A stretch of 64,000 nucleotides of DNA from Ophelia neglecta (GCA_965285935.1 CBDIWN010000045.1:1-64000); one strand, 5' to 3'. Counted from the stretch's first letter, positions 1,253 to 64,000 are shown. A program made the numbers and translations. The notes: generated from the sequence alone by a model not told the origin.

Positions 1253-1614
1253 TACATTATCACATATATGAAGGTTTTAAGGTAGCAAATGGTTGAAGCC
1301 TCAGTTAATGTTTATCAAGACATGACATTATACTCACAGCGGTGCCTAAATTAGCAGCCGACATTTGAGCATTTAAAGTCCTAACTTTTATTTATTTATT
1401 TATTTATTGAATTTCTTTACCCTGGGTAGCCCTATCAGTTTACAACTGTTATTCATAGGGGCCCAGCTTACAATGTACACGTGAAAGTATTATTAACAGT
1501 ATGTATATGTTCAGTATTTATAATATTTACAGTATATACAATAACTATGACCTTTGACCTAACTTTGACATCTATTTGACCTAATATTCCGCTTCCCTTC
1601 TATTTTCCATTAAG

Positions 1615-1695
1615 ATTGAAGTGTACCACTCAGACGAGAGCCTGAATGATGATTACACATTGATTGACGTGGCCTATATCTACGCGTGGAAACGG
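1615..1695 (+). CDS. BMI1: PCGF2/4 gene 1, RAWUL exon (IEVYHSDESLNDDYTLIDVAYIYAWKR)
   Basis: taag/gtaagc boundaries, 81 nt. Matches BMI1 '[27 protein letters not shown]'. Confidence 0.93.
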
Positions 1696-2705
1696 GTAAG
1701 CTTTGGCTATACTACTTACGAATATAATAGGTGTGAAGGGCGCATCCGGTTATCCAAAAGCTACCGTTACAACGTATTTTTCAAGTCATATTTGGGGTGG
1801 GAGGGGGGGGGGGAAGGGGTATTTCCGCCACTCGGGATCGGCCTTTAATTATACGTGAACTTGGAATTTAAGGTTTAGTTTCTTGTGAATGGGGATTCTA
1901 CAATTGATTCGGGATCAAAGATATCAATTTGCTGGGACAAGGGAATGTTTTGTTTAATTTCCCGTGACTAGGGAATCACTATTTCAATTTATCGAGAAGC
2001 GGGAAATACCTTCTTTCCTAATGGCATGAAAAATGCAGACTTTAAACATCCGTGATTCGGGATTTGCCCGTTTTTCAAACTGGGAACTGGGAACGGGGAC
2101 TTCCCCTCCCCCCACACCCCCCACCCCCACCCCCACCCCCAACCTCCCCTCATATTTGTAAAAGTTCGTTCAGAATCAGGTCATATATCCTTTTGAGGGC
2201 AAATCTCTGTGTAATTAATGCTTCAAAATTCACACTATAAATCAGCTAGCACGGTATACGCAGTTCTCCAACACTATTTTTTTATACCCTATGTAAACAC
2301 AACCATGTGCTCTTCTCTTTTCACTACGGCGTTGTTCATGAAAACACGTAGAAAAGTTCGCCAGAAATCTTATTATTGTCTTGTATATTGCCACCTAGCG
2401 GTAAACTAACGACCAGACTTGTGGCAAGAAGTCCAAATTTGTCCATTATTCGCCTTAAATCAGAAAATTCGGGGAAAAATACAAATGTTACTGAGTGCCT
2501 GGACTCGTTTCGTCACATTCAGCTAGAGATTGGATATCTAATTGCCCCTTAATTCCTATAACTGAAAAAATCGCTGATTAAATATCGATGTATTAAATTT
2601 AAAAAAGATAACATAGAAGCATAATTGTTAACATGTTGATAGGGAGTATAAATTTTTCCCACTTGTCGTGATCTTGTGTTACATGTTGCTACTTTCACAC
2701 ACCAG

Positions 2706-5700
2706 GTGGAGCCGCTGAAGTTATTTTATCGGGTAAGAAGGCCTGCCGATGATAAGTGTGAACTTCCGGTGCAGGTTACGACGCATGCGCCCTCAGAACC
2801 ATCGTCCGCCGGAAAGAGAAAACACGAGCCTGAGGTAACCCTGTCACATGACGTCAAGAGATCACGTGTAGAGATCCGCACAAACGAAAACGAGGCAAAA
2901 TATGACGTCATTGAGGAAGGCGGTGACGCTGACGCCAGTGCAGAGTCAAGTGACACCATCATTTATGATGGAAAGGATGTCGAGGGGAACCAAGACACGG
3001 ATCAGCCCGGTACGGACTGTCAGGGCGTCACCGAAACGCGGAGCACGGACCTTGATTCAGCGTCGAAAAACGGTGATGATTGTGAATATAAAATTAGCTT
3101 CAGGACGTTGGATGATAAGGAGGTAGAATCCGTAATCTGCAAGTCCGTGTTCACACGAACCGACACCGGCCCCATGGAGGACCAGACCGGACACGGTTGT
3201 TGTGATCAAGTTACAGAACAGTCGGCTGGTGTCGGAGCCACTGTGGTCAATGAGAGCCAAAACGCACCGAACCTGACTACAGGTGGCGAGGAGAACTCGA
3301 GCAGGGAGAGTGTCAGGCAAGACGCCCGCCTTCCAGAAACGATGGGCCCTAGTAACGAAGGAGAACCAAAAAATATATTTACAATAATGTCCAAGGTGCG
3401 GTCCATTGCGCCCAAGCCGGGAGCGGAGTCTATGGCGGTGATCCCGGCCGAGGGCACCGTGTGTCCTGCCCCGTCGCTCTCCTCCCCGGTCGAGCCGCTG
3501 CCATTCTCCCGCTCCCCCGTCACTAAACCTGTCCTCACCCAGAAGAGACAGGGTTCCCTGCCCCCGATCACTATCAGTAAGCGATGGATACCTAATCAGG
3601 TGACCGTGCCCAAGGCCAGGCCGGTTACCGCTCCCGCCTCCCAGCCCAAGGCTCCGGACCTCGGCAGCGGGGGTCGTTCTCCGGGGGCCAAGCCGGCCAG
3701 CCCGGCGAGGAAACTGCTCCTGACGGGGGGCAACAGGGCTGTGCCGAGCTCACTCGCTAACACCATCGGTAGAAGTGCTTCCAGCGCCAAACACGACAAA
3801 CCCGCGGGCCTGGCTAACCCCTCGGGCCGGCACCTGTCCGCTCCTAGCCCGAGTACCCGCCCGGGCCTGGGGGATACCGGCCGGTCTGGGTCCACCTCCC
3901 GGCAGGGCACCCGCGATGTCCACAACAAACACACCGGCGGGCCAGTGTCCAACACCTGGCATAGTAACCCACCGGACCAGGCTTCAGGTGGTAGCCACTC
4001 CGACACCTCACAACCTCCCGGCCCTGTGCCTCCTGCCCCCATATCGAAGTCCCCTGTCTCCATATCTAAGGCCCTCCTCCCTTTGTGTAAAGTAACCTAT
4101 CCCCGTAAACTGGCCCCAAAGGGCAGTCCTAACAACGGCCATTTACACAGATCCCCCACCAGGACCTCGTCAAGCGCGCCTAACCCCGTCGGGGCCGGCC
4201 GCGGCAAGGCGCTGCCATCTAACTCCGGGGGCTTGGGTAGGGGTTCGCCTAACTACCGGGGGCTGTCTCCCAAGTTGGCTATGAGGGCATTGGGTGCAAG
4301 GGCAGTGCCCAAGACACCCGCTCCCCAGGCCGTAGTCATTCCAAGCGGGCTTAAGACCTTCACGGTGCGGCCGGGCACCTTCACGTCTCTTCAAAACGGG
4401 AGTATCCCCCTGTGTACCATGGCCCCCGCCCAGGTCCTGGCCACCCTGAGCGGCTCCAGGGGCACGGTGGTCATCACCAGCGGGGTGAAGATCCAGACAC
4501 CCCCTTCATCACCTACCTCCCCCTCCAAAGTCCTCAACAACTCCCTTCCCACAGGCCTCTCGGCCGTCATAGACAAGCTCTCCTACAGGAGTTCTAAAAC
4601 GCTGTCCTTCAACCCAGCTGCCAAGGTCACCGCGCATGGCAACTCAGCAGCTAATATCACTGCGCATGCTCCGGACTGCGGCTGCTCTCGGTGCAGAAGA
4701 GATCATTCTTCGGTACCTTCCACTTCTGCTGCTAAAACATTACCACGGTCGAAAATTCCCGGTTCAGACTCTCCTGAGTGTCATTCACGGGGGCCGAAAT
4801 CCCCGGGTTCAGACTCCCGTGAGGGTCAGTCACGGGGGCCGAAATCTCCGGGGAGAGCTTCTCCCAAGGGCCAGTTACAACGGCCGAAATCTCCGGCATC
4901 AGTGTCGCCGGGGAGTAATAGGAAGTCTCCCCAAGTGGGCACCTGCCTCATACCACAGCTGGGAAGGTCAGCGGCGCCCCCTGGGAACAAGAGCATGCTC
5001 CCCTCCAATGTGACAGCCTCAGCTAACATAGCATCCGCCTGTATGGTCTACTCGGCGCCAGGGGGAGGCTCTGTTCCCGCCTCTGGTCACCCTGCTTCTC
5101 CCTCCGTTATGGACACAGCGCCCCTGGCGTTCACTTCTGTCATCAGCTGCGGTGGTGTCTCTCTCGAGTATCAAACCGACTCGCAGTCGCCTACCGTACC
5201 CCCCAGCCCCAGTCCCGTGGCCAGTAGCCATGGAGCCGGCAGTAGCTCGCATGACCTGACGCCCAGTCAAAGTCCAGCACCTGAATGTACTACCATAAGG
5301 TCCGAATCAACAAATAAACATGGGTACATCCCAATACCCAATATTCAAATCGAGGGAGTACCTAGTCAGTCTACAGATATCAATATACAGACGCCTATTC
5401 AAACCTCTACGACCCCTATACAATGTGCACCGACGATACCCTCGTCTTCACCCAAAACCCCCGAGGCTATGTCAACCTCTACATTAACTGGGCAGTCCGA
5501 ACAGACTCCAGTCCTTACACCATTTGATAGCACCTCCTCCCCTTTACAGATCTCCACAGATCCCCTCAGTCAGAGTCTAACCACCAATGCGGCAGTAGAA
5601 AACTCGCTAGGACAGAGCTGTGACTCGCGAACTGCCTTGGATCTTCCCCGTCACGGCCATAGCCCTAAACCAGACCCGTCATCTCAGCCACCTGAACACC

Positions 5701-8516
5701 CCCAGGGCACTCCTCCCGACAGCCACATAACAGTACAGGCTGTACCCTCGGTAGCAGCGGCTCCGCCCTTTAGCAAGACAGTTTGCCCACCAATCACAGT
5801 GGCAGACGCTGCTGAGTCGCCTGTCGTCATGACACCGCTTGCCACACCCCTTCCAGGGACAGACACTGTGGACCTGCCCGTTACTGTGACAGAACCAGTG
5901 GTTTCAACCATCGCCTGTACTGAGGCTATAGCCCCGCCCCAAGCCTCGACAGAGGATGTAGCTCCGCCTCTAGCAGTGACTCGTCCTTTAACTCCGCCTC
6001 TCATCGGGACACAGATATTATCCCTTCCTCTGTGTATGCCCCAGCCTATGATGCCTTCTCTCGCCACAACCCAGCCAATGGCGCCACCCATCTCTTTGCC
6101 ACATACAGTGGCCCCGCCCCTCAACGAGAAAAACAATATGGCCCCGGCCCTCCCTCAGCAGACTTTAACGCCTCTCCCCACTCTGACGCACCCTGCGGCC
6201 ACCGATAGCTCTTCCCACAATGTGCTTACACCCCAGACACCGGCGCATTTAATGACTGAAGTTAAGACATTGGTTTCGGACCAGATGACGTCATCCCAAG
6301 CCTCGTCACAAACTTTGCCTTTCCCTAGCACGCCCATGTCTGTGGCGTCACCGATTGGAGAGGGGTCTGTCATGCCTTCCTCGTTACACCACCCTAGCCC
6401 CGCAGAATCCAGTCAACCAGAGTCTGTCACTCCTTACCCCACCACAGTGGCGCCTCTCCCAGACCTCGCTGCTCATGTAGCGACCCCGGCCTCTGCTCCT
6501 TACCCCATCGCAGTGGCGTCTCGGCCCGACCTCGCTCCCCAGGTATCCCTCCCGGGCTCTGCTCCTTACCCCATCGCAGTGGCGTCTCTCCCCGACCTCG
6601 CTGCTCATGTATCTCCCCCGGCCTCTGCTCCTTACCCCATCACAGTGGCATCTCGCCCCGACCTCGCTCCCCAGGTATCGCTCGCTTCTCCATACCACCA
6701 GCACTCTGTCTCTTCACTTTCTCCAGCCCCAGCGCTCGCTCCCACAACAAACACAGTAGTACGCTTTGCCGCCCCGTCTCCCCCCACACACGTATCCCTC
6801 GCCGCCCCGTCTCCCCCCACACACGTGACCCTCGCCGCCCCGTCTCCCCCCACACACGTGACCCTCGCCGCCCCGTCTCACCCCACACACGTATCTCTCG
6901 CCGCCCCGTCTCACCCCACACACGTGACCCTCGCCGCCCCGTCTCACCCCACACACGTGACCCTCGCCGCCCCATCGAACCCCACACACGCACCCCTCTC
7001 TACATGTTCCCCCACACCACACCCACTGCAGTATTCTGCCGAAAACACGGGGCTTATCATGTTGGCCAATGTGGCCCAAGGTGCTGCCAAGTCGCTGACC
7101 TGCCCGACAATGTTTAGCCCGGGGTCTTTTCCCACGTCTCCCATCATTCCTGGTCCTCCAGCCCTATCCCCAACTCGGGCGACACCCTTCACCATGCCCG
7201 TGAATTCGGTCCTGCACCCGCCTTCTTCCTCGAGCTCTGAATCCTTCGCCCTGCCCGGGACGGCGGTGGTTACGGCCCCTCCGGCCGTATCTTCTGGCCT
7301 CTCAAGGACCTTCTCCAAGCCAATGACCTCCGTGGTGCATTGTCCCCCGGTCGTGTCCACTAGGCCGCCAGGGGTCGCTGCCATACAAATGGTACCTCCT
7401 AGCTTGCCTTTGAGACCCTTGGCACCCCGCCCCCTGGTGGTCACTCTGTCTCCCGCCGGTGGTTTGGTTGCCCCGCCCGTGATGGTTTCCAAGACATCAG
7501 TTGAGACCCAGACGCAGACCTCTGATAGCTTAGAGGATATCCAAACGAGGTACTCCACCACTCACCCAGCATCCCCTCACGCCCCCCTCCCCAACCGACG
7601 TCTGTCAAATCACAAAGACTCCTCCCCCTCACACCAGACCACGCCTCCTCCCGCCTCCAACCCCGCCCACTACAACACAAACTCCGGTAACTCACCTCTT
7701 TATCACACTAGCTCTTCCTCTGCCCCCCACACCACCCGCCACATCGCTACACACAGAAACCCTTCGCCCTTGGAGAGTAAATACTCGTTATCACCTCTCC
7801 CAAATGACGTCATCAACGAGCAGGAGCCACCAATCAAACGGCTTAAAATGATGTGTCACGGCATAGACGCTGAGCAGTCACGTGAGCCACCTTGTTCGGT
7901 CGCCAATCAACCTCATAGGTCCACACTTCCAACTGCTCAGCGACAGCAGGCCAACGGAAGTCACGCTTCCGGTGGCCGAGCGTCTGATCCTCGGAGCTTG
8001 ACGCTAGGAGGCGCCCCGGATAGGTTTTCTCCACCCTCCTCGCTTGTTAGTAACCAATCGCCCCTCCAGAGGCCGCCTCTGGGTATCCACGGCCCTCGCG
8101 GTCCGATGGTAGCCCCGGTTGTTGCCATGATATCACATAGCAACCATTCCCACGCCCTCAGCCCTACACCCCAGAAATCTGTCGTCGGTAGCTGCACCCA
8201 GTCACCCCATTCCCCGCTTAACACAGCCTCAATCCATATCAACTCGCCGCCATTCTCTCCGCTCGTCGCCCCAGGCAACAGTGGTCGCTATAACAACAAT
8301 GTGCGTCACGGAGTCGCCCGTCCTATTCAAAACAACAACAATAACAATAAACGAGACATTATCGGGGTCAACCAACCGGAGAGCACCCTGCTGGCCAACG
8401 GATATGACGCGCCTCTTGAACTGACCACCAAACGCAGCCGGGACCGCAAGAAAGAGGAAATGCAGGGGACGACAACAAACTCTCCTATTATCGCTCCTCC
8501 TCCTCTACGATCCTGA
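2706..8516 (+). CDS. BMI1: PCGF2/4 gene 1, terminal exon: end of RAWUL (VEPLKLFYRVR) plus ~1,930-aa low-complexity Psc-like C-terminal region
   Basis: cag acceptor at 2705, in frame with the previous exon. VEPLKLFYRVRRP corresponds to BMI1 NGPLPLKYRVRP. Uninterrupted 5,811-nt frame to TGA; P/S/T-rich. Confidence 0.92.
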   Translation: MEPLKLFYRVRRPADDKCELPVQVTTHAPSEPSSAGKRKHEPEVTLSHDVKRSRVEIRTNENEAKYDVIEEGGDADASAESSDTIIYDGKDVEGNQDTDQPGTDCQGVTETRSTDLDSASKNGDDCEYKISFRTLDDKEVESVICKSVFTRTDTGPMEDQTGHGCCDQVTEQSAGVGATVVNESQNAPNLTTGGEENSSRESVRQDARLPETMGPSNEGEPKNIFTIMSKVRSIAPKPGAESMAVIPAEGTVCPAPSLSSPVEPLPFSRSPVTKPVLTQKRQGSLPPITISKRWIPNQVTVPKARPVTAPASQPKAPDLGSGGRSPGAKPASPARKLLLTGGNRAVPSSLANTIGRSASSAKHDKPAGLANPSGRHLSAPSPSTRPGLGDTGRSGSTSRQGTRDVHNKHTGGPVSNTWHSNPPDQASGGSHSDTSQPPGPVPPAPISKSPVSISKALLPLCKVTYPRKLAPKGSPNNGHLHRSPTRTSSSAPNPVGAGRGKALPSNSGGLGRGSPNYRGLSPKLAMRALGARAVPKTPAPQAVVIPSGLKTFTVRPGTFTSLQNGSIPLCTMAPAQVLATLSGSRGTVVITSGVKIQTPPSSPTSPSKVLNNSLPTGLSAVIDKLSYRSSKTLSFNPAAKVTAHGNSAANITAHAPDCGCSRCRRDHSSVPSTSAAKTLPRSKIPGSDSPECHSRGPKSPGSDSREGQSRGPKSPGRASPKGQLQRPKSPASVSPGSNRKSPQVGTCLIPQLGRSAAPPGNKSMLPSNVTASANIASACMVYSAPGGGSVPASGHPASPSVMDTAPLAFTSVISCGGVSLEYQTDSQSPTVPPSPSPVASSHGAGSSSHDLTPSQSPAPECTTIRSESTNKHGYIPIPNIQIEGVPSQSTDINIQTPIQTSTTPIQCAPTIPSSSPKTPEAMSTSTLTGQSEQTPVLTPFDSTSSPLQISTDPLSQSLTTNAAVENSLGQSCDSRTALDLPRHGHSPKPDPSSQPPEHPQGTPPDSHITVQAVPSVAAAPPFSKTVCPPITVADAAESPVVMTPLATPLPGTDTVDLPVTVTEPVVSTIACTEAIAPPQASTEDVAPPLAVTRPLTPPLIGTQILSLPLCMPQPMMPSLATTQPMAPPISLPHTVAPPLNEKNNMAPALPQQTLTPLPTLTHPAATDSSSHNVLTPQTPAHLMTEVKTLVSDQMTSSQASSQTLPFPSTPMSVASPIGEGSVMPSSLHHPSPAESSQPESVTPYPTTVAPLPDLAAHVATPASAPYPIAVASRPDLAPQVSLPGSAPYPIAVASLPDLAAHVSPPASAPYPITVASRPDLAPQVSLASPYHQHSVSSLSPAPALAPTTNTVVRFAAPSPPTHVSLAAPSPPTHVTLAAPSPPTHVTLAAPSHPTHVSLAAPSHPTHVTLAAPSHPTHVTLAAPSNPTHAPLSTCSPTPHPLQYSAENTGLIMLANVAQGAAKSLTCPTMFSPGSFPTSPIIPGPPALSPTRATPFTMPVNSVLHPPSSSSSESFALPGTAVVTAPPAVSSGLSRTFSKPMTSVVHCPPVVSTRPPGVAAIQMVPPSLPLRPLAPRPLVVTLSPAGGLVAPPVMVSKTSVETQTQTSDSLEDIQTRYSTTHPASPHAPLPNRRLSNHKDSSPSHQTTPPPASNPAHYNTNSGNSPLYHTSSSSAPHTTRHIATHRNPSPLESKYSLSPLPNDVINEQEPPIKRLKMMCHGIDAEQSREPPCSVANQPHRSTLPTAQRQQANGSHASGGRASDPRSLTLGGAPDRFSPPSSLVSNQSPLQRPPLGIHGPRGPMVAPVVAMISHSNHSHALSPTPQKSVVGSCTQSPHSPLNTASIHINSPPFSPLVAPGNSGRYNNNVRHGVARPIQNNNNNNKRDIIGVNQPESTLLANGYDAPLELTTKRSRDRKKEEMQGTTTNSPIIAPPPLRS
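6432..6693 (+). repeat. Coding tandem repeat, 66-bp/22-aa unit x4 (PYPxxVAxxPDLAxxVxxPxSA), alternating A-B-A-B
   Basis: ccttacccc recurs at 6432, 6498, 6564 and 6630. Confidence 0.9.
6766..6990 (+). repeat. Coding tandem repeat, 33-bp/11-aa unit x~7 (AAPSxPTHV(S/T)L)
   Basis: Near-identical direct repeats in DNA and protein. Confidence 0.92.
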
Positions 8517-52600: not shown

Positions 52601-55514
52601 ATATTAGTCACCTCATCGATAACAGTCAAGATTGAAAGTCATAGCTATATCTAAAGTTCACACTGTTTATAAAATCTCTTGTATTGAACCCACGGTTTTA
52701 ATAGGCCTTGTAACCTTTAATACGTAAAATAAATACGCCCACTGCCCGTCATTTAGTGACTAATGAGTGTATATTGTCATGTGACACGCCACCCGCCTGA
52801 CTCGATGGAGGTGTATACTTTATTAAAGTGTGCCTCCACTCCATCCCCCGTCCATTAACTGGACAGGTGCCGTAAGCACCCCTTACCCCCCTCCCCTCTC
52901 CCCCGACGTAACCCGCCCGGTCTTTTACATTCCTGTCATTATCGCAGGCTGCCTTGTCCAACCCCCAATCTTCTGTCTGCCATTTGTAATCAGCCTCACA
53001 GGTAGAACAGTGGGACGCTTATTAATTTAAAATCCGGCTATTTATCTTTAATTAACGCCGGGATTTCGGCCGAACACCGCCCTTGTGTTGTCCCTGTCTA
53101 GAGAGTAGGTGTGAACCCCCATCTCCGTGTGCTCGGAATGTGTCTAAGTAGCTTAAATAAACACAAGCCCAGAACCTGGATAATGGTACATACTTGATAC
53201 CTCGTAGATGGATTATATTCTGGGGCGGCCATCTTGCCAGGCCTATAATTATTATACATGTATTTATTTGAAGGGCGTAGTTCAGCGCTCAGGGTTATGG
53301 ACCTGCTCAACACCTTATCACGCCTGACGTTTTGGTGTTGACGAGTTAGTTTGCTCACGACCGGATCACACCAATGGCTTTGAGTACAAGTTAATTACAG
53401 AAAGACGAGATCGTTAAAATTATTACCTACAGTGCAGCCCGCCTCCCCGCGTATTGTAGTGGCACAGGATCTGTGCAGTTTAACCCGACTTGATCCTACC
53501 GTATTCTGATATCTCTGTGTCATGCTGCAAGATTAATAATAGACAACTTTAAAAACATCTTGTCTTAACCCTGAACATGGCTGGTTCACCCAGGCGACTG
53601 AGTCAGTATATTTATTTTCTTATTTTTGTACCTTCAACAAAGTATTTACAGTCGGTATACATGCGTAGGTCTAGTCAAGAAGGTAAAAGAGAGGTACGAA
53701 GAAAAAAATACACCAACCCATCGCTTGCGGCTATCTCGTCGCCTATATCACTTAAAAGACTTCTGAAATCAGACAGAATCACGTTCCTTAAAAACCAGGG
53801 ATTATTGGTCTCATTTTATCATGAAGACCGCCAAACATGGCCTCTCTGTCTTCGTGTTTTATCGTTCTAACATTGGGCCTAGGGCTCCTGCCGTTTAAGG
53901 CCTTGGTCCACGGTTCGAACCGCGACCCGTGTCTATTGGCGGCCACGACCTGAGCGTATTGATGTGGGTAGTGTGTGTGAGAGAGGAGGGGTGTTGTGGG
54001 GTGAGATGGGCTTAGGCGAGAACCCGGGGTCAACAGGCTTACCATCTCTATCAAAAGCTCCAGAGATCTGGTAGCAGGAGGCTTTGGGTCCACCCCGGGG
54101 GCGGATCATTTTTGTTCTCACCCTACTAGACTATATTTGTCGGGCCCTACGATACTGGGGGAGCCTGGCGGTTTATCCTGACCTGGCCTCAATCCGGCCG
54201 CTGCCTGGGCTATCACGACATAGAGGCCATAAGTCACTGTCAGGAGTGACACACCAAACACTCGCCTCTCTGACACGTCGCTGTCTCCGCGAGTTACTCG
54301 CGACGAGGTGGGCCTAATGAGAGTTACCCAAAATTCCATGTATGGCCTTCTGAGAACTACCCAGAATGCAAGGCACGACCTAATAAGAGTTACCCAAGAT
54401 GCAATCTATGGCCATATGAGAGTTACCAATGACTCGATAAGCATAGCAATATTAGGCTATCAGCTCGAGGACGAGAAGTTAACGAGACACCCTAGTAAGC
54501 CTATTCTATAGTAAGTCCCCGAAGAAGTCGACAAGAAAGGGTCCCTCCAAGGGTTCTCGTCAGCGAATAATGTCTACTGGCTTTTTAGGACGAGTTAGTT
54601 TTGTTATTGAATATCTTGGTAAGCGTTTTTAGCCCAAATGTGTAATATTAGAATGCAACTGATGGACATGGCGTGCATTGTAAAGATAGTCTCTCTCCCT
54701 GGCAACTGTGTGCTTCAATACGCATGCGCCATTTGAGATGGGATTAGGCCAATACATCAAGTAGACCTGATTAATGTCTGGCAGCTGTCCGCGGACCGCG
54801 GCCTTCGTGTTATTGTCCAACGAGTAATTGGTCAGATTGGTCAATCACCATAGTGGTCAGACCGCTATAGTGACCCCAGACGACTTTTGTTCAGACGCTG
54901 TGACGTGGGCGTGTGACGTACACCACGCCCTCGTTCATCTACAGCCTGCGTCAAATGAATGAAAAACAATGTTAGCTTGCGCAACTTTGACGGAGTCAAT
55001 TATTGTAATGGCCCCATTGAAGGTTGGAGAGTAAGTAGTATTTAGCCGAGAAGCGTGTTGCATGTTAACGCTAGATTATAGTCAGGGGGACTGTGGTTTC
55101 CCGTGGGATCCGAATGATTAAAGCATGCCACCTGTCTAGATGCCTTCAGTAGGTCCAAAAGAGCAAGAAAAGTTTTGGTGGCAAATTCTGAGGGGTGTAA
55201 GAGGGCGGCCATCTTGGTTTTTCAAAATGGCCGCCATTTGTATACGATTTTCACATATAACTCAGGTTGTGAACATGCTATGAGGCTAATATTGGTGGCA
55301 ATACCAATGTTTGCAACACCAAGGAGTCCAAAAAACATGGATTGACATTGCTAGGGTAAAACGGAAGGCTGGCAGCCATCTTGTTTTTCAAAATGGCCGC
55401 CATTTGAATATGTTTTTCACCTATAACTCGAGTACAGGACAAATTATGTCATTTCTAAAATAGTAAGCATGATAAATGAGAGAATTGATTCTTAAAAAAA
55501 TGATGATTATGATT

Positions 55515-55547
<33 letters not shown>

Positions 55548-55623
55548 ATGGTGGTGGTGGTAATGGTAATGACTGCATATATTGTTTTATTTTTCAGGGC
55601 TGATTGGTCTACCACAGTATAAC

Positions 55624-56110
55624 ATGGCTAACTTCGAACCCCCTTCTGCAAAAGTGCCGAGGCAAGATACTGACTTTCACCTCTGCTTCATATGCCAAAA
55701 AGACACATCCGAACGTCTAGTTGAGAAACCTTCTACCCATGGCAAAGTTTTGGAATGCATCAGAGAGCTGGCAACCTACGGCGATGGAAATTTTCCTGAA
55801 ATCAACAGGAGAGTAGGTGACGCTTCTGTAGAATCCATAGCCTCACAAGGTGCAACTTGGCATAGAAGCTGCCAACAGGACACTTGTCATTCATCAAGGC
55901 GTAAAAGGGCAAAAATACGATATGAACAGTTATTAGCACAGAGAAAACAATCTCACTCTGAGACTCTACTTGAGGGCGAAATTCTCACAATGTCTAATCT
56001 ACACCAAGCGTATGTGGATATTCGGTCAGCGAATTACGTCAAGAAGCCAGACTGTGTCCGGAAAAAGGTCAAAGATCTTATTGAAAATGAGATTCCCGGT
56101 GTAGAGTTTC
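55624..56110 (+). pseudogene. Truncated, internally deleted transposase N-terminus (left arm): MANFEPPSAK...CFICQK...WHRSC...SHS/ETLLEG...GVEFH
   Basis: ORF track 55582-56256. Lacks the segment present in the right arm and runs into the inverted copy. Confidence 0.75.
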
Positions 56111-56855
56111 ATACACCATTAGACATTGTGAGAATTTCGCCCTCAAGTAGAGTCTCTTCCACCAGACTTATAAATTCAATGTCAGCTGCAATTTCATTTG
56201 CTACATTGTCTGTTGGTGTTTCAGATGATTTACGGCGGAGAACATTGGTTACATGAGTGGTCCAACACTTGTTGTGATATCGAATATCAATAGCATGTGC
56301 ATCTTTGGGGTTTATAGCAGTGCTGAGCTTCACACGGAAGTTGTCATTGTTACTCATTTCAATGGCTGAATGAAGATGCCATCCAGCAGCATCAGTCCGT
56401 ACTTTAGATAGTGGATGGCGATAAGAACCTTCTTTCTCACAAAAGAAGCAGACATCACTGTCATATGGTTTCGACTGAGACCGTGTAAAATTGGTGGCAG
56501 CAGGCAAAGGAATTGGTGCAGAGTGAGATTGTTTTCTCTGTGCTAATAACTGTTCTTATCGTATTTTTGCCCTTTTACGCCTTGATGAATGACAAGTGTC
56601 CTGTTGGCAGCTTCTATGCCAAGTTGCACCTTGTGAGGCTATGGATTCTACAGAAGCGTCACCTACTCTCCTGTTGATTTCAGGAAAATTTCCATCGCCG
56701 TAGGTTGCCAGCTCTCTGATGCATTCCAAAACTTTGCCATGGGTAGAAGGTTTCTCAACTAGACGTTCGGATGTGTCTTTTTGGCATATGAAGCAGAGGT
56801 GAAAGTCAGTATCTTGCCTCGGCACTTTTGCAGAAGGGGGTTCGAAGTTAGCCAT
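56109..56855 (-). pseudogene. Truncated transposase N-terminus (right arm) with one premature stop (TAT>TAA at 56556-58); CxxC...WHxxC and CFFC...DAHAIDIRYHNKC modules
   Basis: ORFs 56556-56897 and 56109-56507 are in one frame, separated by a single TAA where the left arm has TAT. Confidence 0.78.
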
Positions 56856-56917
56856 GTTATACTGTGGTAGACCAATCAGCCCTGAAAAATAAAACAATAT
56901 ATGCAGTCATTACCATT

Positions 56918-56970
<53 letters not shown>

Positions 56971-57421
56971 AATCATCATTTTTTTAAGAATCAATTCTCT
57001 CATTTATCATGCTTACTATTTTAGAAATGACATAATTTGTCCTGTACTCGAGTTATAGGTGAAAAACATATTCAAATGGCGGCCATTTTGAAAAACAAGA
57101 TGGCTGCCAGCCTTCCGTTTTACCCTAGCAATGTCAATCCATGTTTTTTGGACTCCTTGGTGTTGCAAACATTGGTATTGCCACCAATATTAGCCTCATA
57201 GCATGTTCACAACCTGAGTTATATGTGAAAATCGTATACAAATGGCGGCCATTTTGAAAAACCAAGATGGCCGCCCTCTTACACCCCTCAGAATTTGCCA
57301 CCAAAACTTTTCTTGCTCTTTGGGACCTACTGAAGGTATCTAAATAGGTGGCATGCTTTAATCATTCGGATCTCACGGGAAATCATATTGAACCACAGTC
57401 CCCCTGACTATTATAGGCTCT

Positions 57422-57592
57422 TGTAAACCTTGGAATTGAGACCACTCAAGGGACTGGAAAGTGGTGGTCAAACTTTGGAGGTGGTCTGTTTGGTCAGGTT
57501 ATTTCACCTTGAAGGTACTCAGTATGCTTTTCATATTGGTGGTCTGAATTGACAAGTGACCCGGATCTAGAGGTGGTCTTTACGGCAGGTCA
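57422..57592. mobile_element. MITE family A, degenerate copy
   Basis: Family interior (gagaccactcaagggactgg...gaggtggtcttta). Confidence 0.65.
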
Positions 57593-58939
57593 CATGTCGA
57601 TGGGTTTCTGCCTGAAATCCATGAACAATTGATGGCAAGCAATATTAGAGGTGTGCAAGGGTTAACAATTTATCCAGCTAGGCAAAGTGGTTCTCTTATT
57701 TTCCTGTGCACCTACATTATTACATTGCTGTAATTTCAGACCACCTCTTTATTCGGGCCACACATCTAAAGACCACACTGTATACCTTAAATGTAAAATC
57801 TGTCTAAAAACACCACCTTCAAAAGCAGACCAGTATTTAGCAGTCCCTAAGATGGTCTTAATTTCAAAGTTTCTCTCTGTCTCTAAAACCTAGCGAGCTA
57901 ATGAAATAAGCTTGCCCAAGGAACTGACTCTAAGCGTGACCATCCATGTTATATACCCCAATTAGAGACCCATGTTGGGGCAAACCTACTCGATGAGTCC
58001 ACTATGACGTAGGGATTAAAACGACAAGTCTGACTGCCCTTGAACGCAAATCCCACGTATATTGCGTCGCAGCCTTTTTACCCCTAGTTTTCGTGGCTCA
58101 AACCGCGTACTTATTTCGTGATTCCTTTGACGTATGCGAGTACTCGCGGGTGTACGAAGAAACTCGAGTTCGAATCAACAAATTATTCACACGAAGTAAA
58201 CAGTAATTTTCTCCGGTGACAAGTGGTCTCGTTCAACTGATTCGAGAGGCTGCGAGATTGGAAAAACGCCAAAAAAATAACTTTATAGCTTTGAACAGTT
58301 AGCTATCGCTTATTCAGCAAGGTAGGCCTAATATAGTCATGGGTCATATTCTCACGGTGAATCATCGAAATTAGTGTACAAACAGCACCTCAGAAAGCTT
58401 TTTATTCTTGGCTTATTGGTTATTAGGTTATTTGGAAAAACCACGTGCTACGTGTAGGCATGGTGACGTGCAGACTACGCGCCTGTTTTACCAACTAGCC
58501 GTTTGGTCGGGGTGACATGACGGTCACGTGATCGCGACTTGAAAGCCCAGGCTGTGCGCTATAAGCAGACGTAGTAGATACTGTTGTGCAATCTTCAGCA
58601 CATATTTCGTTTTTTAACAGACAGAGGAGATGCCAGGAATGATCTAAGGCTGATACTCCGTACTGTGCATACTAAACAAAGCCTTTATATCTGAGTTTTC
58701 GGCGGGATGTAAGACAAGCCATTCTGGTGAGTGGTGAGTCTGTCTCACAGGGATCTACGTATTTCTGTATCAATACACGATGTTTACCGCGCCCTACATC
58801 AATGGGTATATAATTCAAGGCTGACCACTGATTATAGATCAGAGGGCCAATGAGTATATCGAGACTGACCATAGGCTGGATATTCATACGCCTCGCACGA
58901 TATTGGATAAAGGCAATTTAGTATTTGGGTGTTAACAAG

Positions 58940-59232: not shown

Positions 59233-59307
59233 GTATTAACTGTCGTTGTGTTTTTGTTGATGTTGTTGTTTACTTACTTGTTTGTGTTTGTTTCCAGTTT
59301 GGCCGTG

Positions 59308-59419
59308 ATGTATAAGGTGACACGGCTCAGGGTGCCCGAGCTTCACCCAAACCTGACCTGTACTCTCTGCGGGGGGTATCTGGTGGACGCCACAACCATA
59401 GTAGAGTGTCTCCACTCAT
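59308..59419 (+). CDS. BMI1: PCGF2/4 (BMI1/Psc-like) gene 2, first coding exon ([37 protein letters not shown])
   Basis: Acceptor at 59297, ATG at 59308, gtaagt donor. Matches BMI1 '[38 protein letters not shown]'. Confidence 0.95.
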
Positions 59420-59564
59420 GTAAGTATAGTACACCATAGAAGGCCTATACCGAACAAGGTACAATAGACTCCTGTCTTGTTATACCGTGCAGTCAATAGC
59501 CCTGCTTGCTGGGCGGATTTAAACAGTGTTCAAAATTACAGATTCTGCCCTGTATAGGCCTAAT

Positions 59565-62782: not shown

Positions 62783-62883
62783 GTAAGTATTCTTACCTAA
62801 TATCTTTCTCCGTGATTTGTGCCTGTCACTTCAGACAGTCTGGGTCTGTTGGACACGTGACCACAGGCTCCCTAGTATAGTTA

Positions 62884-63057
62884 CAGTGAAACCTGCCATA
62901 AAGACCACCTCTATATTAAGACCACCTGTCAATTCAGACCACTCATATGAATACCATACTGTACACTATCAATGTAGAAAAACCGTGTAAACAGACCACC
63001 TCTGATGAGACCAGTAATTTTCAGTCCCTCGGGTGGTCTCAATTCACAGGTTTCACT
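62884..63057. mobile_element. MITE family A
   Basis: ta|cagtgaaacctg...caggtttcact. Confidence 0.88.
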
Positions 63058-63548: not shown

Positions 63549-63876
63549 TTTTACTGCCCGTACAGTGTGCTCTCTGGTACTGTAAAGATGGCCCCGCCAC
63601 AGCGATCCTTGTAGGGTACAATTTACTCTCCCTATCCTTTTAATGATTTCTTAAATGTTTATTTATATGAACTCTTGTGTCTATAATATCTGGTAAATAT
63701 GTGCACCATATAGATTTAAATTTGACGAATGAAGCGAGTCTCATTCTGAATCAGAGGCTACATCACCGCCTTCCTCACAGCCTCGAATTGAGGGGCGGGC
63801 GAGTCTGTTTATTATTTTAGACCCCCTCTATGTACACGCAACGTCAGAGGAGCGATAGAAATGATTCATATATATA

Positions 63877-64000
63877 TAGTGAAACCTGCCTTAAAGACCA
63901 CCTCTATAATCAGACCACCTGTCAATTCAGACCACTGATATGAGGATCATGCTGTATACCTTCAATGTTAAATAACCTGTCTAAACAGACCACTCCCAAA
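63877..64000. mobile_element. MITE family A, cut by the window end
   Basis: tagtgaaacctgccttaaagaccacc. Confidence 0.85.

Follow-up and report, generated by a model that had tools for sequence, protein, structure and literature searches.

A mobile fold-back derivative of an Academ-type transposon in Ophelia neglecta, probably formed by a template switch inside a terminal inverted repeat

The window analysed here, a stretch of 64,000 nucleotides of Ophelia neglecta DNA (GCA_965285935.1 CBDIWN010000045.1:1-64000), carries a palindromic element in which the beginning of one transposase gene stands on both arms. The locus raises the question of whether such an element is a real and mobile transposon, and by which route it was formed. 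The fold-back is real: it is 2,332 bp long (window 55079-57410), starts with TAG and finishes with CTA, is flanked by a TTA duplication on both sides (55076-55078 and 57411-57413), and has near-identical inverted arms. The arms at 55094-55960 and 56519-57385 are 867 nt each and 99% complementary. When they were aligned in full, the TAGTCAGGGGG terminus, an (ATG)n tract, a ttttcag motif, and the MANFEPPSAK start were common to both. In the left arm, 363 bp are missing in frame (SHS/ETLL) and the reading continues to GVEFHTP; the right arm has a TAT>TAA change at window 56556 and ends at TMSN. The initial annotation had already described the TTA flanks, the shared arm components, the in-frame deletion with the longer 3' reach of the left arm, and the stop and end of the right arm, and all of these were found again. 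The perfect 39-nt inverted pair (55960-55998 and 56118-56156), described there as a second small inverted pair, is present as well, but it is the stump of the same long arm and not a separate pair. Absent from that annotation was the difference between the two tips, a 10-bp indel and five substitutions within the first 89 bp. The features are as follows, with parental positions taken from the full-length copy L021 (G000:C9:64440741-64446653, contig C9, 5,913 bp).

55076..55078, left target-site duplication, TTA
55079..55157, plus strand, 'short' tip, from the parent 3' TIR; 10 bp shorter at parent 19-28, with 3'-type alleles at parent 38, 66, 68, 74, and 89
55158..55410, plus strand, 253-bp stretch, the same in both parental TIRs (parent 90-342)
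55411..55959, plus strand, parent 5' subterminal DNA, including transposase codons 1-112
55500-55550, plus strand, (ATG)n tract
ending at 55597, plus strand, ttttcag motif
55624, plus strand, transposase start
55624..56256, plus strand, putative 210-codon frame: truncated transposase N-terminus that reads across the junction into antisense DNA
55959..55960, plus strand, junction of the 363-bp in-frame deletion (parent 892-1254, codons 113-233)
55960..55998, plus strand, 39-bp stump of the left arm, pairing with 56118-56156
55999..56117, plus strand, unpaired central loop (parent about 1294-1412), oriented like the short tip
56118, fold-back junction with 1-bp microhomology (A), identical in seven copies
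56118..57410, minus strand, right arm with the 'long' tip: bases 1-1293 of the parent, its true 5' end
56556..56855, minus strand, putative 99-codon truncated transposase frame
57411..57413, right target-site duplication, TTA

The TIR also contains repeated AAAATGGCCGCCAT words, located at window 55203-55240 and 55373-55406 and again in mirror image on the right arm, which we take to resemble the YY1 consensus; similar words occur in other Academ-like TIRs of the genome.

The frame of the parent L021 begins at the same MANF and spans 1,485 codons, and a shifted C-terminal piece follows, as an 8-bp frameshift near the C-terminus sets the Cys-rich tail apart. The bases missing there are present in L032 and on contigs of all four compared sequencing runs. 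The search for an autonomous parent thus gave a full-length element, but not an intact reading frame, and because this sole full-length copy is frameshifted, the mobilising copy is absent from the assembly. The parent interior is whole at this one place only in the genome. The normal parental TIR is only about 342 bp long and contains no coding DNA, which disposes of the concern that parental TIRs might already hold the coding segment.

According to structure models, the parent is predicted to encode an Academ-type DDE transposase with a nuclease of the XPG/Exo1 fold. Residues 1176-1481 were modelled with pLDDT 92, and the best Foldseek match was human Exo1 (E 2.2e-5), followed by XRN, T5 FEN, and FEN1. 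The nuclease residues D1179, D1222, E1318, E1319, D1321, D1345, D1347, and D1403 are invariant in all 20 aligned proteins. An RNase H-like DDE core has modest support: its model reached pLDDT 86, Foldseek gave no match at E<=0.001 (best Hermes, 0.18), and in VIA-align Hermes led with Z 8.3 (273 aligned, rmsd 7.8), ahead of RAG1 (5.7) and Transib (5.0). The catalytic candidates D491, D679, and E930, as well as two N-terminal C2-H-C modules, are invariant in 20/20 aligned proteins. Pfam recognised TCR/CXC in the frameshifted C-terminal piece with E 0.00093, under the curated cut-off, and eight of the 20 aligned proteins match this piece. Pfam gave nothing usable on the arm peptides. In a protein search, 72 relatives were found, the best 63% identical over full length and none of them near-identical; a metagenome scan gave 18 distant loci, 35-59% identical in the best segment, and sequence searches of the PDB revealed no relative. 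Academ elements have TAG…CTA termini, a nuclease labelled XPG, and a C-terminal cysteine-rich domain. An RNase H-like DDE core is described for the Academ transposase (PMC5751038), and PMC10045372 gives for AcademX a 3- or 4-bp target-site duplication and a nuclease, not a helicase, beside the transposase. The parent is like that lineage in its 3-bp duplication, its nuclease of the XPG/Exo1 fold, and the lack of a helicase, and fits an AcademX-like element, an assignment made by described features and not by comparison with Repbase/Dfam entries. The Academ label given from the window alone therefore agrees with the duplication, the TAG…CTA ends, and the predicted nuclease and DDE core of the parent. 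Several other Academ-like families are present in the genome (L079-L090), 26-36% identical in the core, some with open frames of more than 1,400 codons and with TIRs of 150-1,150 bp.

By DNA search, 95 matches were obtained in the genome of the window. The 20-nt terminus has 33 exact matches in the 762-Mb genome (the reversed control has 0), which correspond to 15 two-ended copies and three single ends at 18 loci; such an exact pattern would miss older, diverged copies. These 18 loci comprise one full-length copy, nine fold-backs, four simple deletion copies, two copies with foreign interior, and two single ends. The fold-backs are those of the window, L022-L026, L028, L030, and L031, with L026 cut by a contig end. 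Every two-ended copy has TAG…CTA termini, and all except L036 (14/15) have at their flanks a 3-bp duplication whose sequence varies from copy to copy; the ends are therefore TAG…CTA, and TTA is the duplication in the window. A TA duplication with GTCAG ends, offered earlier as another reading, is contradicted by the same copies, all of which begin with TAG inside a variable 3-bp duplication (14/15). A or T stands at both the first and the last base of the duplication in 12 of 14 cases.

The central junction of the window copy (parent 1413/1292, 1 bp of microhomology) is found in seven copies in total, window included, on contigs C1 (twice), C2, C8, C9, C53, and C60. Their flanks differ, and the six that are two-ended have each its own 3-bp duplication. 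Seven copies of one junction at unrelated sites with their own duplications mean that the fold-back transposed as a unit, as had been proposed for the window copy. A different junction is present in L030 (parent 1682/1463, 4 bp of microhomology) and another in L031 (parent 1605/about 1426, 1 bp); the three types may be of separate origins, or may be separate central deletions of one longer founder. The loop of 120 bp continues the long-tip arm in four copies (L022, L025, L026, and L028) and the short-tip arm in three (window, L023, and L024), and its presence in both orientations indicates that exchange between inverted arms does occur in the family. No shared substitutions set the three loop-flipped copies apart, and these may go back to one flip or to several. 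In the search for an empty site, the left flank matched itself alone in the assembly (single-copy), the right flank matched an abundant different repeat, and an empty allele was not found. The right flank (window 57425-57800, 62876-63053, and 63869-64000) is a copy of this other short repeat, with 2,948 candidates genome-wide.

Three further loci are described here as they stand. At L027, two deletion copies of 2,206 bp (1548-3753 and 4565-6770) are 100% identical and separated by 811 bp; each is set in a duplication of its own (AAC and TAA), and the pair represents a very recent local hop. L035 1561-3982 (G000:C2:51834760-51837181) is a Pack-type copy with 3' subterminal DNA at both ends, a GCA duplication, and about 1.6 kb of foreign interior. 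In L036 1520-4520 (G000:C8:38369719-38372719), foreign DNA of 2.3 kb lies between two TIRs whose alleles are mosaic, and there is no duplication; its interior gave no match to the transposase of the family.

The origin of the fold-back can be followed on its tips. The 5' and 3' TIRs of the parent differ at 19-28 (the 10-bp indel), 38, 66, 68, 74, and 89; the next 253 bp (90-342) are the same in both, and the two diverge after 343. As these are fixed markers, each tip is assignable to its end of origin. In the parent and in all four simple deletion copies, each tip stays on its own side, the long one next to 5' DNA and the short one next to 3' DNA. The right arm in the window is the parent's true 5' end, and the left arm starts with the 3'-type allele at all six sites and continues as 5' DNA, so the element does not consist of two left ends, as the initial annotation had it. 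All eight two-ended fold-backs have one arm with a short tip on 5' DNA, and one long and one short tip are retained in 15/15 two-ended copies. In the fold-back form, parent 343-1292 is repeated in inverse orientation on both arms. L035 is the reciprocal product, with a long, 5'-type tip joined to 3' subterminal DNA.

Most probably, the TIRs were extended from about 340 bp to about 1.29 kb by a template switch inside the TIR during repair, followed by end joining. Repair synthesis would have begun from the right end of the parent and, after 89 bases or more, would have switched to the left TIR inside the identical stretch (parent 90-342) and copied about 1.3-1.4 kb of left-end DNA, and the copied strand would have been end-joined to the true left arm. 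The founder's switch from 3'-end to 5'-end sequence would thus fall somewhere within 55158..55410 of the window copy, a finer position being beyond resolution. The switch might have taken place while a gap left by excision was repaired, or while a break in the 3' part was mended; the data agree with ectopic recombination as well as with gap repair. The product would keep one long and one short tip and could be moved in trans by the transposase of the family, later exchange between the near-identical arms would flip the loop, and the 363-bp one-sided deletion would be a later, palindrome-stabilising event. L035, the reciprocal product, supports the switch, as do the junction microhomologies, which measure 1, 4, and 1 bp in the three types.

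Two other routes start from different events. A crossover between the TIRs could invert the interior, and recombination or end joining with a normal copy could then make the fold-back; the loop in both orientations among the seven same-junction copies (4 vs 3) and the mosaic TIR alleles of L036 agree with such a crossover, but no interior-inverted copy is present among the 18 loci, and two rare events would be required where one switch suffices, which makes this route unlikely. Somewhat less probable again is the model of the initial annotation, in which the DNA between two head-to-head insertions of the parent was lost, with two left ends remaining. Local hops such as that of the identical L027 copies do occur, and a head-to-head model is in print for mariner, where PMC4678618 offers it for Rpmar49. 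It predicts two long tips, however, which were seen in none of the eight two-ended fold-backs, and otherwise it would need a prior interior-inverted copy, again none among the 18 loci. The tip markers thus exclude a simple fusion of two copies and favour a switch inside the TIR.

Sequencing reads were also compared with the parent. Run X1 has the organism label of the best-holding runs and is possibly the sample behind the assembly. Its contigs terminate exactly at L021 6042 and 6162, the two junction coordinates, and its summed depth is 27 in the single-copy interior and rises across the junction coordinates from 66 to 303 (loop) and 484 (arms). Laid against the parent L021, these contig ends and depths fit many fold-back copies; among the listed records of run X1, no contig or joint bridges the fold-back junction. 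Palindromes are prone to assembly and read artefacts, and the window is on a small contig (C53), but an artefact of assembly or of long-read folding is hardly credible when the same junction recurs on six contigs with different flanks, each of the six two-ended copies is set in a duplication of its own, fixed alleles which a read folding back could not create tell one arm from the other, and contig breaks and depth in run X1 agree with real fold-backs.

Two lesions are private to the window copy, the 363-bp deletion (parent 892-1254) and the TAT>TAA change (parent 855, codon 100). The deletion takes out the second conserved C2-H-C module, and the stop on the right arm precedes the same module, so the arms are not complementary. 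Both lack everything after codon 286 of about 1,600, and neither reaches the catalytic core (residues 491-930); the earlier description of complementary lesions is thus not upheld. The deletion ends 39 bp short of the loop, and the small inner inverted pair left by it is the remnant of the original 1.29-kb arms. In the simplest reading, the deletion arose after insertion. Asymmetric deletions are believed to stabilise palindromes (PMC8701086), and the one-sided central deletions of four of the nine fold-backs resemble them.

A probable first coding exon of a RING gene (window 59305-59436, plus strand; Pfam zf-C3HC4 E 0.016), presumably of the Polycomb PCGF/BMI1-like family, lies 1.9 kb downstream of the fold-back in the orientation of its left arm. 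At the other side of the window (2652-8516, plus strand), there is an open frame of 1,954 codons, Pro/Ser-rich and probably a single very long exon. Its start resembles, as we assume, the end of a PCGF RAWUL domain; Pfam found nothing in this frame.

Among known systems, the Goblin MITE of Ozma in Aedes aegypti was given the model preferred here, a template switch between TIRs during gap repair, then end joining (PMC3814204). Goblin likewise has the subterminal DNA of one end on both sides in unequal lengths; it is unlike the present element in its 54-bp TIRs, 3' derivation, and 6-bp microhomology, whereas the Academ fold-backs have 1.29-kb arms with 246-286 transposase codons and TIR alleles that mark the origin of each tip. 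Galileo 2RT of Drosophila mojavensis (TIR1-F1-F1-TIR2) has also recruited internal DNA into a longer TIR, mostly from the 5' side, but it belongs to the P superfamily, has a 7-bp duplication, and its recruited DNA is non-coding spacer (PMC3573991). The models proposed for Galileo 2RT (PMC3573991) and for Mu homomorphs (PMC10401008) are close to the switch preferred here. Mariner MITEs are similar as amplified, non-autonomous elements having long TIRs with transposase DNA and further central deletions (PMC4161770, PMC4678618). In some sublineages the 3' part was replaced by the 5' part, an origin called 'elusive' (PMC4161770). A dimer of two copies was proposed in the work on Rpmar17 and Rpmar49, and for Rpmar17 descent from one longer founder by separate central deletions was argued (PMC4678618); in the Academ fold-backs, the tip alleles speak against a simple dimer. 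Mu killer of maize has about 1.3 kb of the transposase 5' part duplicated and inverted, with two TIRA ends at one locus and silencing demonstrated (PMC3440606), in contrast to the Academ fold-backs, which are multicopy and have one 3'-derived tip in 8/8 two-ended cases. The likeness to Mu killer is structural only. No fold-back Academ was found in a literature search that did not include the primary Academ papers. The initial annotation took the element to show how fold-backs arise; the route to them is already described in other superfamilies. The element is a real, mobile, non-autonomous derivative, with extended TIRs, of a young AcademX-like transposon, and its markers are unusually clear. 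Elsewhere, the origin of long-armed derivatives of DNA transposons was argued from breakpoints alone (called elusive in PMC4161770).

The long and short tips in 15/15 copies fit, but do not prove, a requirement of Academ for unlike ends, as a switch is far likelier in 253 identical bases than in the first 18. In other families of the genome (12 loci), L079/L088 and L081/L082 showed an offset of 9 bp in about the outermost 45 bp, and L083, L085, and L087 none near the tip; tips are undefined, or no TIR is in view, in L080, L084, L086, L089, and L090. With an offset in two families and none in three, the long/short rule is not universal. Of the sampled words, 0.43-0.92 are present in each of twenty runs from 15 studies; these runs bear 11 organism labels, apart from a sediment metagenome and a run that has no label. 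Runs X4, X5, and X8, of three other labels, carry the parent nearly end to end over L021:2100-6960, a length of 4,861 bp in which they differ from it by 33, about 36, and about 41 substitutions (about 99.2-99.3% identity); most differences are common to these runs, and depth does not rise over the arms. Such identity suggests a possible recent horizontal spread of the parent between species, or close kinship of the hosts.

More tentatively, and with doubt prevailing, a newly arrived Academ, near-identical across many marine organisms, might have spawned mobile fold-backs resembling Mu killer, now half of the family, that silence it via long hairpin RNA, and the constant long and short tips, despite loss of other right-end DNA, might be a natural test of a transposase that pairs unlike ends, as RAG does. 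The leads are three: a possible need of Academ for a long end paired with a short one, a possible shutdown of the family by hairpin RNA from the fold-backs, and a possible recent passage of the parent from one species to another. As the family has few members and is very young, founder, amplification, loop flipping, and central decay are visible in it side by side.
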